The notes below the pieces were generated by a model. The model searched no databases and was not told the DNA's origin. It worked only from the letters and a program-made list of their open reading frames with translations. This document shows, piece by piece, positions 24,121 through 39,307 of a DNA stretch of 64,000 nt. The stretch comes from a virus (taxonomy: Duplodnaviria; Caudoviricetes): the IMG/VR virus record IMGVR_UViG_3300008262_000001; one strand, given 5' to 3'. Position numbers and translations under genes: made by a program. Within the stretch, counting starts at the first letter, position 1. Each line of letters begins with the position of its first letter.

Positions 24121-24828
24121 CTAAAGTAGTCCCCATTTTTCTAAGAATATTGGCTGAGATCCCGTCGTTAGCCTAAACATCTCAGTGTTATCAGATACAA
24201 CAGCCTCTGTTGTTTTACCTATGTTTTTGTCGTGATGTATAACTATGGAGTCAGTAACGAGTGCGTGTTTGAGTCCTTGTTGCATCAATGTCATCGCATA
24301 ATCATTATCGCAAAACCAGTGAAAAAATCTTTCATCCAAGTCACCAATGATATCATAAATTTCTCTTTTATGGACGATACACCATCCGGATAATTCCTTT
24401 CTAATATTGTGACCAAATCTAATTCCAGAGTGAGGATAGATTCCATACATAACTTGTGTCATTGGACAAATGGGAGAGAAAGAAATAACATCTGGATTTT
24501 TTTCGTGGCAATCAAGAATTGTAGAAAACCAGTTTTTTGTAAATTCTAAATCATTATTGCACAAGGCTACCCATTCAGAGGATCCGCTTTTTCTACCAAA
24601 ATTTAAGAATTTGTGATATCCATAAGGTAGAGGTGCAGATAAAGTTTGGATGTTGCAATTTTTATAGTTCCAAGTTACCCCTTCTTGTGATTCCACAACT
24701 ATTACATTGAAAATCTCTGAAGAGTTTTCTTCGGAGGAAAACAAAGTTTCTATACAGCGAGAAGTAAGAGATTTACAATAATCATCCTTAGCATAACTTA
24801 CAATTACAATATCGATTTTACTGTCCAC
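24121..24828 (-). CDS. Glycosyltransferase family 2
   Basis: IDIVIVSY, VIVVES, WVALCNNDLEF (DxD-like), IGDLDERFFHWFCDNDY. Confidence 0.85.
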   Translation of the reverse strand: MDSKIDIVIVSYAKDDYCKSLTSRCIETLFSSEENSSEIFNVIVVESQEGVTWNYKNCNIQTLSAPLPYGYHKFLNFGRKSGSSEWVALCNNDLEFTKNWFSTILDCHEKNPDVISFSPICPMTQVMYGIYPHSGIRFGHNIRKELSGWCIVHKREIYDIIGDLDERFFHWFCDNDYAMTLMQQGLKHALVTDSIVIHHDKNIGKTTEAVVSDNTEMFRLTTGSQPIFLEKWGLL

Positions 24829-24875
24829 TTACAAATCAGATTATAAAAACTTTAGAAGTTTTAAGGAGTAAAGTT

Positions 24876-25463
24876 TCAGGATCGGATTTTCGACTTTTCT
24901 CCAAGATATCCTCCATGGTGACGTTTAAAATAATCACAAGTGGTAAATTTTTTAGAACTCATGAGTTCAACTACTATTAAATCAGAAATTACCGACATGC
25001 AAGTAGTCGAAGTTGTTGGAGTTAATCCTAATGGACATATCTCATCAACAACCCCGAATTCAAAAACATCAGAACATTTTGTGTTTAGATACGGATTACT
25101 TTGTCCAGTTATTACAAAAATATGATTTCTGTTTCCGAGTTCGTGTACTAAAGAAATTAACTCTTGTATTTCTCTAGTTTTTCCAGAGTTTGTGAACATG
25201 ATAAGGACATCATTGGGCTGGATTACTCCGAGATCTCCGTGTTGTGCTTCTGAAGGGTGTAGAAAGACAGACGGAGTTCCTGTAGAAGATAGAGTTGTTG
25301 CTAATGTGTTAGAAATTTGTCCAGCTTTTCCCATTCCTGATGTAATTATCTTACTCTCTGGTACGAGCTGCCTTTTGATAGATTCGATGAATTCTGCAAG
25401 TCTATCGACTGGAATCCTTGAGATAGCAGATATTTCTTGCTTCAGTAGGGACTTAAGGTTCAT
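24876..25463 (-). CDS. kdsD: SIS-domain sugar-phosphate isomerase, KdsD/KpsF/GutQ (arabinose-5-phosphate isomerase)-like, no CBS domains
   Basis: TSGMGKAG, STGTPSVFLHPSEAQHGDLG, NSGKTREI, CPLGLTPTTST, HHGGYLG. Confidence 0.85.
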   Translation of the reverse strand: MNLKSLLKQEISAISRIPVDRLAEFIESIKRQLVPESKIITSGMGKAGQISNTLATTLSSTGTPSVFLHPSEAQHGDLGVIQPNDVLIMFTNSGKTREIQELISLVHELGNRNHIFVITGQSNPYLNTKCSDVFEFGVVDEICPLGLTPTTSTTCMSVISDLIVVELMSSKKFTTCDYFKRHHGGYLGEKSKIRS

Positions 25464-26471
25464 TTATTTAATTCTCTCGTTTACCATTTCTCTCAGAATT
25501 TCATCGAGAGACATTGAATATGTCCATCCTAGTTTTTCTTTTGCCTTTGTTGCATCTCCGATGAGCAAATCAACTTCAGATGGTCTAAAATATTTAGGAT
25601 CCACTTTAACCATAATTTCTCCTGTTTCTTTGTTTTTTCCAACTTCGTTTATTCCTGTGCCTTCCCATTCAATGTCAACATTTAGAATTCTTGCTGTAGT
25701 TTCAACAATAGATCGGATTGTATGTGTTTTACCTGTCGCAAGTACAAAATCTTCAGGTTGGTCTTGCTGCAACATTCTCCACATACCTTCTACGTATTCT
25801 TTTGCGTGACCTATATCCCTTTGTGATTCTAAATTTCCTAAAGAGAAACAATCAGTTTTTTTGTGGTACAGGATATCAACCAAGGAGTCAACTATTTTCT
25901 TCTCGACGAAATTTTCACCTCTCCTTGGAGACGTGTGATTGAAAAGAATTCCGTTACAAGCAAAAAGGTTATAAGCCTCTCTGTAATTTTTAATTATCCA
26001 AAATCCATAAAGCTTAGCTACACCATAAGGACTTCTAGGATAAAAAGGTGTTGTTTCTTTCTGAGGAATCTCTTGAACTTTGCCATAAAGTTCGGAGGTT
26101 GAAGCTTGGTACAGTTTGGTTTTTGGTGAGTGAGATCTGATAGCATCAAGTACATTCAAAGTACCTATTGCATCTACCTGACCTGTATAATACGGGATTT
26201 CGAAAGAAATCTTAACATGACTTTGTGCAGCTAAATTATAAAATTCATCAGGTTTGATCTCAGAAATTAATGTGCTTATAGAGACGGGATCAGTCACATC
26301 AGCGTAGTGCCAATAGAAATTGGGTTTATTTCGTAAGTGATCTATTCGTCTTGTGTTGAAAGAAGAAGATCTCCTAATTATTCCATGAACCTCGTAACCT
26401 TTTTCCAACAAAAGCTCTGCAAGGTAAGATCCATCCTGGCCATTGATTCCAGTTATTATAGACTTTTTCAC
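25464..26471 (-). CDS. gmd: GDP-mannose 4,6-dehydratase
   Basis: [75 protein letters not shown]. Confidence 0.97.
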
Positions 26472-37153: not shown

Positions 37154-37947
37154 ATTAGAGAAGGAGTACTTTTTTTTCCAACTTCCGCTCCTTTAATCCT
37201 TTCAACCAGAATCGCCTGATTTAAAGAACTGTATTGATTGAATAGCCTTTCGTTAGTTGGCATATTTCTGACATCTTTACCGAAATGACTTAGATGTGCA
37301 GCTTCGTAAGGAATTCTGTCCATAGATTCATCAGTTCTTCCTAATAAAAATTTAATAGTTTCTGTTGCCGCTTTATCTTCCCAGCCATATTTAAAAAAAT
37401 TCTCATTGTATCCGCCAAAAGTTTCCCAGAACCAGTTTCTGTTATAAACAAGAATAGCACCGAATCCACATCCGCGAGTCATTGATCTAAATTTGAATAC
37501 AGGGTCTCTGGGTCCATTTCCCTGCGTCCTAAAATAATTGAAATCTCTGTTTCTCAACCACACTGATGTTGGTGCTTCTGTATTACACCAATAATACGTT
37601 TCTGCTCCAGCGGCAAAGTTTCCCTGGAATTCAGATATTTTTTGAAAGTAATCTTTTTCAAAAACAAAGTCAGAATCCATTAAAACTAAGAGATCCCCTG
37701 TCGCCTCTTTCGCACCGACATTTCTACACCAGCTCAAATTGAAACCTCTATTCTGAGGATCCTTAATAGGTATATGCTTATAAAAAGGATTACCAACCTT
37801 GTAGAAATTATTATCTAAGGCCTGTTCAACAACAATGACCTCATAATCCTTAAAAGACTGTTCTTGTATACATCTTAAACATTCATTGAAGTTCCTGGTT
37901 CTTAAACCATCATTGCCTCCTGTAGGTAAAACAATAGATAATCTCAT
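37150..37947 (-). CDS. Glycosyltransferase GT2/GT7-C
   Basis: VIVVEQ, FNLSWCRNVG, LMDSDFVF, GGYNENFFKYGWED. Confidence 0.8.
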   Translation of the reverse strand: MRLSIVLPTGGNDGLRTRNFNECLRCIQEQSFKDYEVIVVEQALDNNFYKVGNPFYKHIPIKDPQNRGFNLSWCRNVGAKEATGDLLVLMDSDFVFEKDYFQKISEFQGNFAAGAETYYWCNTEAPTSVWLRNRDFNYFRTQGNGPRDPVFKFRSMTRGCGFGAILVYNRNWFWETFGGYNENFFKYGWEDKAATETIKFLLGRTDESMDRIPYEAAHLSHFGKDVRNMPTNERLFNQYSSLNQAILVERIKGAEVGKKSTPSLI

Positions 37948-38681
37948 GTGTCAATTCCTAACTTTTTAAATAATAATTTACAGATCCATAGATTTTGTGA
38001 CAAGGGGCGGGGTAAATGACAATCTATATATTCCTCTGGATTATAGTCATTTTTTGGCCAAACTGCTTTATCTAATCTTCTTGAAGCATATTTTTCTTCC
38101 ACCCATCCTCTAGAAAGATGCTTCAGATGGATATGAATTTTAACTTTAGATTGATTATAAAAAAACTTCTGATCTGTTCCGAACCTTAAGTTCATTTTCA
38201 TAATTCTTCTGAAGAAGTGTTTATGATCTATGTCTTGGAGGTCTAACATATCAACAAAAGATCCAGGGTCTCCTGCTAGATAGCACATAGGATACTGGGG
38301 ATTAGTTTTATACCACCTATAATTAATTATATCAGAGCTATAAGAGACTATTCCATTACCAATCAGAGAAGCAGCTCCATGCTTATAGTAATCCTCAGAT
38401 ATAGGAAGCATATCAATATCTGATATTATGAAAGGACCATCCAAAATCTTAGCTGCCCAGAACCTTATACATTGCGCTTGTTGGTAAATCTGCCAATCTG
38501 GAATCGATTCAAAGAAAAATACTTTACCATATCTCGAAAGATCTTCAGAAGGAGTTTGATTTCCAATATACAAAAGTACAGGCTCGATCCCTATCCTCTT
38601 CCACATTTTTGCCACATAAGGCCAAAAATCTAAATACTCCGGATTTGAATCTGAACTAACAACAGCGTACTTTAATTCCAT
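37944..38681 (-). CDS. Putative glycosyltransferase-like protein
   Basis: IISDIDMLPIS (DxD-like); 4-nt stop/start overlap with the downstream GT gene. Confidence 0.55.
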   Translation of the reverse strand: MELKYAVVSSDSNPEYLDFWPYVAKMWKRIGIEPVLLYIGNQTPSEDLSRYGKVFFFESIPDWQIYQQAQCIRFWAAKILDGPFIISDIDMLPISEDYYKHGAASLIGNGIVSYSSDIINYRWYKTNPQYPMCYLAGDPGSFVDMLDLQDIDHKHFFRRIMKMNLRFGTDQKFFYNQSKVKIHIHLKHLSRGWVEEKYASRRLDKAVWPKNDYNPEEYIDCHLPRPLSQNLWICKLLFKKLGIDT

Positions 38682-38683
38682 CC

Positions 38684-39307
38684 TTATTTCTTTCTAATTA
38701 TACCTCGAGAATGCAGATTATTTCTTTGAACATTACGGCTTTCTTGAAAATGTTCAATAACTGGATGAAGACCAGGATACATGTTCCTAGTGTGATCAAA
38801 AATAAACGTGTATTCCGGAGGCAGATTGTAATAAACCAGATCATTGAATTCACGATGTGCAGTTTGCATATTCTTCTGCTCCCAAGTTTCAGGTTTCATC
38901 CGCTCAGCAGGAGTCGACTCATTTAATTCTATCCACCTATTTACAAAACCTCTCACTTTGTCATTGTTCTTTAGAAACAAAGTACCAGAAAGGGCTTCAT
39001 CTTTCCTCCATCTAAAGTTTTCGGTCCGATAAGCTAGGTCACACTCCAAAGTTGCAATCAAACTCGGATAAGCCTTAAAAACTGCATCCACGTCAACACA
39101 AAGAAGATCCTGACTAAAGTTCTCTAAACACTGCTTAATAAAATAAGCTTTAAAATGTGTGTTCTTTTCCCAAGAACCCAAATCATCTATTCCCTGAATA
39201 TGATAAGGCAAACCAAATTCATCTAAAGACTGCTTAAGCTTTTGCGAGAGTTCTTCATATCTAGTAGATTTGGTGAAATATGCAATAATTAAAAAATTGG
39301 GGCTCAT
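38684..39307 (-). CDS. Putative nucleotide-diphospho-sugar transferase (GT-A)
   Basis: FKAYFIKQCL, LLCVDVDAVF, LSGTLFL, WEQKNM, LPPEYTFIFD. Confidence 0.7.
   Translation of the reverse strand: MSPNFLIIAYFTKSTRYEELSQKLKQSLDEFGLPYHIQGIDDLGSWEKNTHFKAYFIKQCLENFSQDLLCVDVDAVFKAYPSLIATLECDLAYRTENFRWRKDEALSGTLFLKNNDKVRGFVNRWIELNESTPAERMKPETWEQKNMQTAHREFNDLVYYNLPPEYTFIFDHTRNMYPGLHPVIEHFQESRNVQRNNLHSRGIIRKK

Follow-up and report, generated by a model that had tools for sequence, protein, structure and literature searches.

An 18-gene block that very probably forms a modular glycan-synthesis island in a huge freshwater phage

Gene content and integrity of the block

The stretch of DNA analysed here (64,000 nucleotides of IMG/VR record IMGVR_UViG_3300008262_000001; hereafter, the window) comes from a huge tailed freshwater phage and carries at 24121-39307 a block of predicted enzymes of glycan synthesis. 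The block comprises 18 consecutive, tightly packed open reading frames (ORFs) of 195-541 amino acids (aa), all on the minus strand. A preliminary description, made from the sequence alone, had the strand and the contiguity right but counted 16 genes. The five 4-nt overlaps that it reported are present (27634/27637, 30432/30435, 32832/32835, 37150/37153 and 37944/37947), and further junctions overlap by 1 nt (two) or by 11-14 nt (three). Family assignments were drawn from Pfam, NCBIfam and the PDB. These profile and PDB searches recovered the enzyme families named earlier (Gmd, ColD-like, Fcl/ColC-like, KdsD-like, NodU, FkbM and a class I methyltransferase) and bore out the glycosyltransferase (GT) families, whose total rises from about nine to about ten with two ORFs that have no Pfam match. 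We compared ten islands, those of the window and of nine IMG/VR relatives with 77-84% capsid identity, and call universal the genes found in all ten. Outside this set, a second phage (L127, an ENA contig of 136.7 kb) matches the window in all 18 genes and in their order, each of them intact. From the head-side to the tail-side end, the genes are:

38684-39307, minus strand: GT-A-type transferase (Nucleotid_trans/GT34-like), 207 aa, first island gene, family 0
37944-38681, minus strand: transferase of unnamed family with a DxD motif, 245 aa, family 1, universal, without Pfam match
37150-37947, minus strand: GT2/GT7C-like glycosyltransferase (PF00535, 1.8e-10), family 7, 'type A' left-arm marker, in 5/10 islands
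36023-37153, minus strand: GT2/GT7 (beta-4-GalT-like) glycosyltransferase, 376 aa (PF10111, PF00535, PF13733, PF02709)
35116-36033, minus strand: divergent Fcl-family epimerase/reductase, ColC-like (171 bits against the Fcl equivalog cut-off of 500)
34389-35129, minus strand: GT11 protein (alpha-1,2-fucosyl/colitosyl-transferase family; PF01531, 1.1e-20)
33770-34387, minus strand: GT25 glycosyltransferase of the lipooligosaccharide (LOS) type (PF01755, 7.6e-17)
32832-33770, minus strand: weak GT2-like protein, 312 aa (PF00535, 3e-4, under the cut-off; 80% in relative G005, 88% in L127)
32044-32835, minus strand: GT10-like protein (alpha-1,3/4-fucosyltransferase family; PF00852, 1.5e-7)
30432-32057, minus strand: NodU/CmcH-type O-carbamoyltransferase (PF16861, 2.9e-52, and PF02543)
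29710-30435, minus strand: FkbM-family methyltransferase (TIGR01444, 1.2e-16)
29075-29695, minus strand: DUF1796 protein (PF08795, 2.5e-6)
28301-29053, minus strand: weak NodZ/FUT8 (GT23)-like transferase (PF05830, 5e-6, 26 bits against a cut-off of 28.3)
27634-28284, minus strand: class I S-adenosylmethionine-dependent methyltransferase (PF13649, 1e-5; weak TIGR03587, Pse-associated methylase)
26471-27637, minus strand: ColD-type GDP-4-keto-6-deoxy-D-mannose 3-dehydratase, DegT-fold (PDB 2gms/3gr9)
25464-26471, minus strand: GDP-mannose 4,6-dehydratase (Gmd), universal, in 10/10 islands (TIGR01472, 509 bits against a cut-off of 415)
24876-25463, minus strand: single-domain (SIS only) arabinose-5-phosphate isomerase, universal (KpsF/KdsD N-terminal domain, 5e-43)
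24121-24828, minus strand: GT2-like transferase, 235 aa, last island gene, family 4, universal (PF00535, weak)

Several of these proteins were characterized beyond their profile matches. The 207-aa transferase, present in 10/10 islands, has no Pfam match, and its nearest atlas clusters are viral and bear PF03407/PF05637. In the 245-aa protein, residues D88 and D90 are invariant; its AlphaFold model (pLDDT 81) matched in Foldseek the catalytic domains of GT8, GT6 and UGGT enzymes (E ~3e-6, TM score ~0.5), so that the protein is predicted to be a transferase with a GT8/GT6-like GT-A fold. A sequence search with the GT11 protein gave zero solved relatives, and the isomerase matched over its full length the Bacteroides-type single-domain isomerase 3etn (2e-57). 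The family-4 transferase forms more than 100 clusters at 90% identity in metagenomes, and the atlas clusters of DUF1796 are mostly from Nucleocytoviricota and Uroviricota.

Hydrophobic 19-mers above 1.6 are absent from all 18 proteins, none of which has a membrane-like segment. The polytopic membrane proteins that mark Wzx/Wzy- or ABC-dependent loci are missing from these proteins and from a 248-kb, 85%-complete relative (G002), which has zero ORFs with more than four hydrophobic segments; its ORFs with any such segment are not long. The reported lack of a flippase, a polymerase, an ABC exporter and ManB/ManC holds in the block and extends to this relative, and an initiating phosphoglycosyl transferase was likewise not found in either. 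A search for PF01973 (Maf-type) returned sub-threshold matches only.

The island has the same GC content as its flanks and occupies an identical site in the nine IMG/VR relatives. In relatives with ~68% capsid identity the island is absent, and the homologues of the flanking segments 23797-24108 and 39457-40176 lie only ~1.4 kb apart. Therefore, 24121-39307 marks the exact limits of a clade-specific insertion. Short Logan contigs from three independent freshwater studies, no single one of which covers the entire island, match island and flanks with an identical sequence and even depth and bridge the head-side junction. The ratio of nonsynonymous to synonymous divergence (dN/dS) between the window and L127 is 0.01-0.21. 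The island is an integral component of the phage that evolves under purifying selection.

Sugar pathway, architecture and cassette exchange

Three genes of the block make up a putative GDP-L-colitose branch. The top solved relatives of the ColD-type protein are the E. coli ColD structures 2gms and 3gr9 (1e-49), with E1 dehydrase and perosamine synthase ranking behind. Further, the protein carries a histidine at the position of the catalytic His188, the site altered in the H188N mutant entry 3b8x; the protein at 26471-27637 thus has the histidine that replaces the aminotransferase lysine in 3-dehydratases of this pathway. Gmd scores well above its family cut-off. The third enzyme is the Fcl-like reductase (35116-36033), which human GDP-fucose synthase matches at 4e-41. 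This divergent form occurs only in islands with ColD (window, G005 and L127), and the islands without ColD have a near-canonical Fcl (428-433 bits) adjoining Gmd. Co-occurrence with ColD is what supports a ColC role for the reductase. With the ColC step assigned in this way, Gmd, the ColD-type protein and the reductase would convert host GDP-mannose to GDP-L-colitose. We found zero matches to PF00483 (ManB/ManC-type nucleotidyltransferase) in five relatives and none in the block; GDP-mannose must, therefore, be supplied by the host. The transfer of colitosyl or fucosyl residues may fall to the GT10, GT11 and GT23-like enzymes.

The isomerase would supply arabinose-5-phosphate towards 3-deoxy-D-manno-octulosonate (Kdo), a route to which relatives add KdsA and from which the window has lost it. 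In 8/10 islands, the genes of the isomerase and the last transferase flank that of KdsA (311 bits against a cut-off of 242), which is cleanly missing in the window, in relative G012 and in L127. No copy was found anywhere in the window, where a 47-nt spacer (24829-24875) occupies the KdsA position. From the full set of KdsD, KdsA, KdsC and KdsB, the window encodes the isomerase alone; among the relatives, a CTP_transf_3 gene was found in G005 only. These assignments support the earlier proposal of a cytoplasmic pathway to a methylated and carbamoylated deoxysugar glycan. The block would be a functional set of soluble enzymes, with a 3,6-dideoxyhexose as the probable sugar of the nucleotide precursor.

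Across the ten islands, the universal families number five: the 207-aa and 245-aa transferases at the head-side end and Gmd, the isomerase and the 235-aa GT2-like transferase at the tail-side end. The middle is a mosaic: in total, the ten islands contain 95 families (40% identity), and 58 of these are singletons. A canonical Fcl is present in 6/10 islands. Two alternative left arms are discordant with the capsid phylogeny. Besides further methyltransferases and epimerases, the variable genes encode GT6, WbqC-like and pyruvyl-transferase-like proteins, UDP-glucose dehydrogenase, a ketoacyl synthase and reductase, an AroB-like cyclase and cytidylyltransferases. The carbamoyltransferase gene opens a cassette found only in the type of the window and has no counterpart in the nine IMG/VR relatives. 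The protein is 93% identical in L127 and at most 41% identical to its next-best homologues, and querying IMG/VR with it returned two short partial matches only. Synonymous divergence (dS) between the window and L127 is 0.26-0.44 within 26471-32057 (5.6 kb) and 1.2-3 or saturated on either side. This indicates a recent exchange of the cassette from ColD to the carbamoyltransferase.

Two other islands deserve mention on their own. That of G005 (L095/L096; G005:C1:41274-47191) encodes an AroB-like sugar-phosphate cyclase, a glycerol-3-phosphate-type cytidylyltransferase and a pair of weak MptE/Maf-like proteins; a gene for a 374-aa protein resembling CMP-sugar synthetases lies on the opposite strand. 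A more distant phage (L130, an ENA contig of 139 kb) retains the order asparagine synthase, RimK-like gene and small genes, followed by another island with a family-1 transferase first, plus GT10, GT2, DUF5672, DegT, WbqC, an acetyltransferase and several methyltransferases.

Sugar-nucleotide enzymes and several transferase families, variable among syntenic relatives and unaccompanied by export genes, are the features of a polymorphic phage glycan island, and all are present here. We consider it very probable that the block is a phage-resident, modular island for glycan synthesis that combines a sugar pathway, about ten soluble transferases and tailoring enzymes, with conserved ends and swappable middle cassettes.

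The island also contains a short motif that had been described as a late-promoter-like site. This site and the region upstream of the first island gene are:

29055-29066, minus strand: start-proximal ATATATA motif, 12 nt before the NodZ-like gene
39308-39456, no strand assigned: divergent intergenic region, in which a GAAAC-N18-TAAAAT element (pattern match at 39385) and an ATATATT box precede the first island gene

The site is a genuine member of a motif class in which 13 of the 19 ATATATA occurrences in the window lie 11-28 nt upstream of starts on the same strand (expected share 2%, p ~3e-18), compared with 3-18% for control AT-rich heptamers. Other copies in the window include those at 3982-3988, 4373-4379, 7687-7693, 41141-41147, 48949-48955, 51087-51093, 55007-55013 and 58450-58456. 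The class is spread genome-wide in the 248-kb relative, with 61/104 occurrences start-proximal, and TATAAATA is unenriched (5 found, 7.6 expected). The late-promoter label was, therefore, abandoned: ATATATA is a general promoter or initiation-region element of the phage lineage and not a late marker. Nor does the co-orientation of the island with the tail genes, once put forward as an argument, carry information, because nearly all genes are on one strand. In the divergent intergenic region, the GAAAC-N18-TAAAAT element and a short GC-rich palindrome are kept in 8/10 relatives (L093-L109), the other two having different DNA.

The acceptor of the glycan

As we picture the pathway, about ten soluble transferases, two methyltransferases and the carbamoyltransferase would act in the host cytoplasm during infection to build a decorated oligosaccharide. 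The three universal transferases would lay a conserved core and the swappable middle cassettes would confer an outer structure specific to each phage type. For the acceptor we favour the phage's own virion proteins, with a probability of roughly 0.4. Under this reading, nucleotide sugars would be the direct donors for glycosylation of these proteins, ahead of or in the course of assembly, as for flagellin, actinophages and giant viruses. Flagellin glycosylation is cytoplasmic and does not need a lipid carrier. The universal 245-aa transferase belongs to a family with 1571 clusters at 50% identity and, in 3 of the 5 long bacterial homologues inspected, it makes up the N-terminal domain of a TPR/multi-GT protein whose gene adjoins those for flagellin, FlaF/FlbT or FliS/FliD. 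WbqC and PIG-L genes accompany these flagellin-linked proteins. Among cultured phages, homologues of the 235-aa transferase occur in actinophages only, as in Mycobacterium phage Omega, where gp16 follows the capsid gene; the methyltransferase next to gp16 has a homologue in the island of one relative. Further, the universal transferases and DUF1796 fall in virus-dominated clusters, some of them common to giant viruses.

Candidate acceptors would lie in two head-cluster proteins, at their G-X-T tracts, or in the capsid protein, at its variable loops rich in Ser and Thr:

55020-57680: head-cluster protein, 886 aa, with a collagen-like (G-X-T/S) tract of 12 repeats and a weak tail-fibre PHROG match
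46321-48393: head-cluster protein, 690 aa, with a collagen-like (G-X-T/S) tract of 5 repeats
51164-52936, minus strand: major capsid protein, 590 aa, 42-44% identical to Lak megaphages and a 462-kb uncultured phage

Collagen-like tracts of the (G-X-T/S) type are O-glycosylated in Bacillus BclA. The 886-aa and 690-aa proteins may be head fibres and serve as glycan acceptors; tracts of 4-12 repeats occur in the head-cluster protein of 9/11 close relatives, and tract length ranges from 0 to 11 among close relatives. Residues ~150-290 of the capsid protein form a stretch rich in Ser, Thr and Gly, the length and sequence of which vary even between relatives with an overall identity of at least 80%, most of the remainder being nearly invariant. 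This stretch is probably an exposed insertion domain. Comparing the capsid proteins of island-bearing and island-less phages revealed five clade-fixed columns and no clear acceptor tail, and among the virion proteins of the window none proved strongly Thr-rich.

Several observations weigh against a virion acceptor. The three flagellin-linked homologues may stem from one bacterial lineage, and the correlation with G-X-T tracts is confounded by phylogeny. As ATATATA is not late-specific, it does not mark late co-expression with virion genes. A tblastn search with all island proteins (E 1e-3) gave no homology to the proven enzymes Che8 gp108-110 and Corndog gp36-38; its only matches among actinophage enzymes were to the untested Omega proteins gp16 and gp17. 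To our knowledge, no phage of a Gram-negative host glycosylates its virion with its own enzymes, and a literature search for glycosylated virions of such phages found nothing relevant. Finally, the Kdo-precursor genes (isomerase in 10/10 islands, KdsA in 8/10), together with GT25, GT8-like and GT10/11 enzymes, are typical of the synthesis of lipopolysaccharide (LPS) or LOS, and the layout of conserved ends and variable middle resembles LOS and O-antigen loci. The preliminary description had given virion proteins as the most plausible acceptor. The flagellin-island family, the actinophage homologues and the G-X-T tracts lend this circumstantial support, short of establishing it as a fact. Its notion of a lipid-carrier-free pathway stands insofar as no phage carrier machinery is present; the pathway may still use a carrier, as host machinery such as MsbA or Wzx could serve it.

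The LPS-type gene content leads to the strongest alternative, remodelling of the host envelope, which we regard as a serious contender if short of even odds. Soluble transferases at the cytoplasmic face of the inner membrane would act on lipid-linked host acceptors (the lipid A-Kdo core, undecaprenyl pyrophosphate-linked O-units or the general O-glycan of Bacteroidota), and the products would be exported via the host MsbA, Wzx or ABC systems. The altered surface would block superinfection or keep progeny off debris. The isomerase and KdsA would provide a committed precursor of an LPS-core sugar, and GT25, GT8-like, GT10 and GT11 enzymes plus colitose are classical LPS/LOS components. MsbA-type export needs no phage membrane protein, consistent with none being found, and the polymorphic layout mirrors that of O-antigen/LOS loci. 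Published work on cyanophage and pelagimyophage clusters also reads them in this way (PMC7824862, PMC7029224, PMC12801897). Such remodelling is not known for any lytic phage. The hypervariable cassettes lack a cognate Wzx/Wzy, which is usually structure-specific, and no enzyme of the Kdo-transferase type (GT30, GT99, GT107) was recognized. Moreover, the universal transferases belong to virus-dominated families whose bacterial relatives are flagellin-linked, and their only relatives in cultured phages are in actinophages, the hosts of which have no LPS.

An improbable alternative is that the island makes another product: a free or secreted oligosaccharide, a glycosylated small molecule or merely a boost of the host's nucleotide-sugar pools. 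The carbamoyltransferase, FkbM and the AroB-like cyclase of G005 also occur in secondary-metabolite pathways, and Iyer et al. raised such an idea for a second cyanophage cluster (PMC7824862). Ten transferases argue instead for an assembled glycan, no exporter was found in the block, and all universal genes encode transferases or sugar-nucleotide enzymes.

Hypermodification of the phage DNA, with the glycan placed on a modified base as in the glucosyl-hydroxymethylcytosine of T4 or the arabinosyl-hydroxycytosine of RB69 and DLP3, is very unlikely. In RB69 and DLP3, DNA arabinosylation does make use of phage arabinose-5-phosphate isomerases (PMC13326640), and a thymidylate-synthase homologue is present in the phage lineage. 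In the islands, though, the isomerase is paired with KdsA and not with the kinase, phosphatase and nucleotidyltransferase set of arabinosylation; NTP_transferase was not found in five relatives. The thymidylate-synthase homologue is also present in island-less relatives and, thus, independent of the island. Ten fucosyl/LOS-type transferases plus tailoring exceed the mono- to trisaccharides of DNA modifications (PMC13326640), and the linked modified-base synthase, nucleoside diphosphate-sugar synthesis and DNA transferase of phage DNA glycosylation are not found together. Last, the check for a chimeric insert was negative, and an assembly chimera or a recent bacterial insert without phage function can be dismissed, given the shared site in 10 related phages from different metagenomes, the even depth in three independent studies, the strong purifying selection, the phage-like GC content and the at most 41% identity of the nearest non-phage carbamoyltransferase homologue.

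If the glycan does go to virion proteins, a huge phage of a Bacteroidota host would coat its own particle with a type-specific, colitose-bearing, methylated and carbamoylated glycan, made in the cytoplasm without a carrier and attached to G-X-T fibres or capsid loops, and cassette exchange would generate 'phage serotypes'. We put forward this full scenario tentatively. A glycan on virions would extend virion glycosylation to phages of Gram-negative bacteria, beyond actinophages and giant viruses; a glycan on the host would be a lytic-phage form of serotype conversion.

Genomic setting and comparison with known systems

The host probably belongs to the Bacteroidota, because the capsid relatives and the island isomerase, with the Bacteroides-type 3etn as its best solved relative, point there. 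Weaker matches of the capsid protein are to phages of Tenacibaculum, Chryseobacterium and Flavobacterium, and a prohead protease gene adjoins the capsid gene. The identical island sequence is present in lake and freshwater metagenomes from several studies, a 316-kb contig on record encodes one of the island's proteins, and a megablast search of the island DNA against 50,697 phage records gave zero matches. A freshwater 'moraphage' lineage with four core transferase families has been described (PMC12619734); the phage studied here may belong to the same group. The immediate neighbours of the island are accessory genes (NUDIX, RimK-like and asparagine synthase). Further structural genes of the window are:

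1904-3601 and 14215-15090: baseplate genes

At the end of the baseplate region (7795-8904), a 369-aa protein has S1 RNA-binding domains. Three genes follow one another at 42181-45709. They encode an acidic (EEDTEEE)n repeat protein, a protein that joins a RimK-type ATP-grasp to a Zn-protease-like domain, and asparagine synthase. Of these, island-less relatives retain only asparagine synthase (55% identity) at the matching region. Upstream of the head genes, 58474-63280 holds a run of DNA-repair type (PolB-exonuclease-like, Fpg/Nei-type glycosylase, UvdE-like endonuclease and UVR-motif proteins).

Glycan islands of this kind have already been described in jumbo cyanophages and pelagimyophages, and the view of this one as unusual was overstated. 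What is new here is the putative colitose branch, the precise insertion site, the universal core, the evidence of cassette exchange and a lead tying a universal transferase to protein glycosylation of the flagellin type. Aquatic jumbo phages repeatedly carry large glycan clusters. With a fixed site, five universal genes, exchangeable cassettes and more than 100 sequence-distinct relatives in public data, the lineage is a clean comparative system for the question of what such clusters glycosylate, one that also offers testable acceptors and a defined sugar, GDP-colitose.

The nearest published counterparts are the 'LPS / capsular polysaccharide' clusters of jumbo T4-like cyanophages, namely P-SSM2 (15 genes with polymorphic transferases; PMC7824862), S-SCSM1, S-SCSM2R (13 transferases and KdsA/KdsB; PMC12801897), S-CAM7 and ACG-2014f. 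Like these, the island is a long run of soluble sugar-nucleotide enzymes and many transferases (GT2, GT10, GT11 and GT25), with KdsA present in S-SCSM2R as in most of the relatives' islands, and it is polymorphic between related phages and free of export genes (PMC7824862, PMC12801897). The cyanophage Gmd is 59-62% identical to the island Gmd, and S-CAM7 and ACG-2014f also have a DegT-fold neighbour and transferases. Unlike the cyanophage clusters, the island belongs to a lineage with a capsid 43% identical to that of Lak megaphages and probably a Bacteroidota host, has a fixed insertion site and five universal end genes, and joins a putative ColD/ColC colitose branch to carbamoyl and FkbM tailoring in the same operon. 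The hypervariable 'host recognition cluster' of pelagimyophages and cyanomyophages (PMC7029224) is similarly a non-syntenic island among structural genes, with many transferase and deoxysugar genes, and varies between phages that are otherwise syntenic. Those islands also hold tail-fibre genes, whereas the present one is purely enzymatic and bounded by accessory genes.

Among systems that modify proteins, the virion O-glycosylation of actinophages (Che8, Corndog and Myrna; Freeman et al. 2023, as cited in PMC12363180) resembles the island in having soluble transferases and a methyltransferase in or near the structural genes, and family 4 is ~30% identical to Omega gp16, encoded directly after the capsid gene. 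The actinophage systems comprise 2-4 genes with no sugar-nucleotide synthesis, compared with 18 genes here; the present host is Gram-negative, and the capsid protein has no visible C-terminal Ser/Thr tail. Bacterial flagellin glycosylation islands share with ours the homology of family 1 to the N-terminal domain of flagellin-adjacent TPR/multi-GT proteins, as well as WbqC-like genes, but the window has no flagellin, TPR substrate-binding domain or Maf-type enzyme. Virion glycosylation in chloroviruses and mimiviruses likewise combines Gmd/Fcl-type enzymes (the chlorovirus PBCV-1 encodes GMD and GMER) with cytoplasmic transferases and methyltransferases, and its glycan has a conserved core that is decorated differently from strain to strain. 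The island also has the DUF1796 and GT8-like families in common with giant viruses; unlike these, the island resides in a prokaryotic virus as one operon-like block and is known from its genes alone. The GDP-colitose pathway of E. coli O55/O111 type, finally, has the same Gmd, a ColD with the catalytic histidine, an Fcl/ColC-family reductase and the GT11 family used in colitosyl transfer, and differs from the island in that it is accompanied by ManB/ManC, Wzx/Wzy and an initiating transferase.

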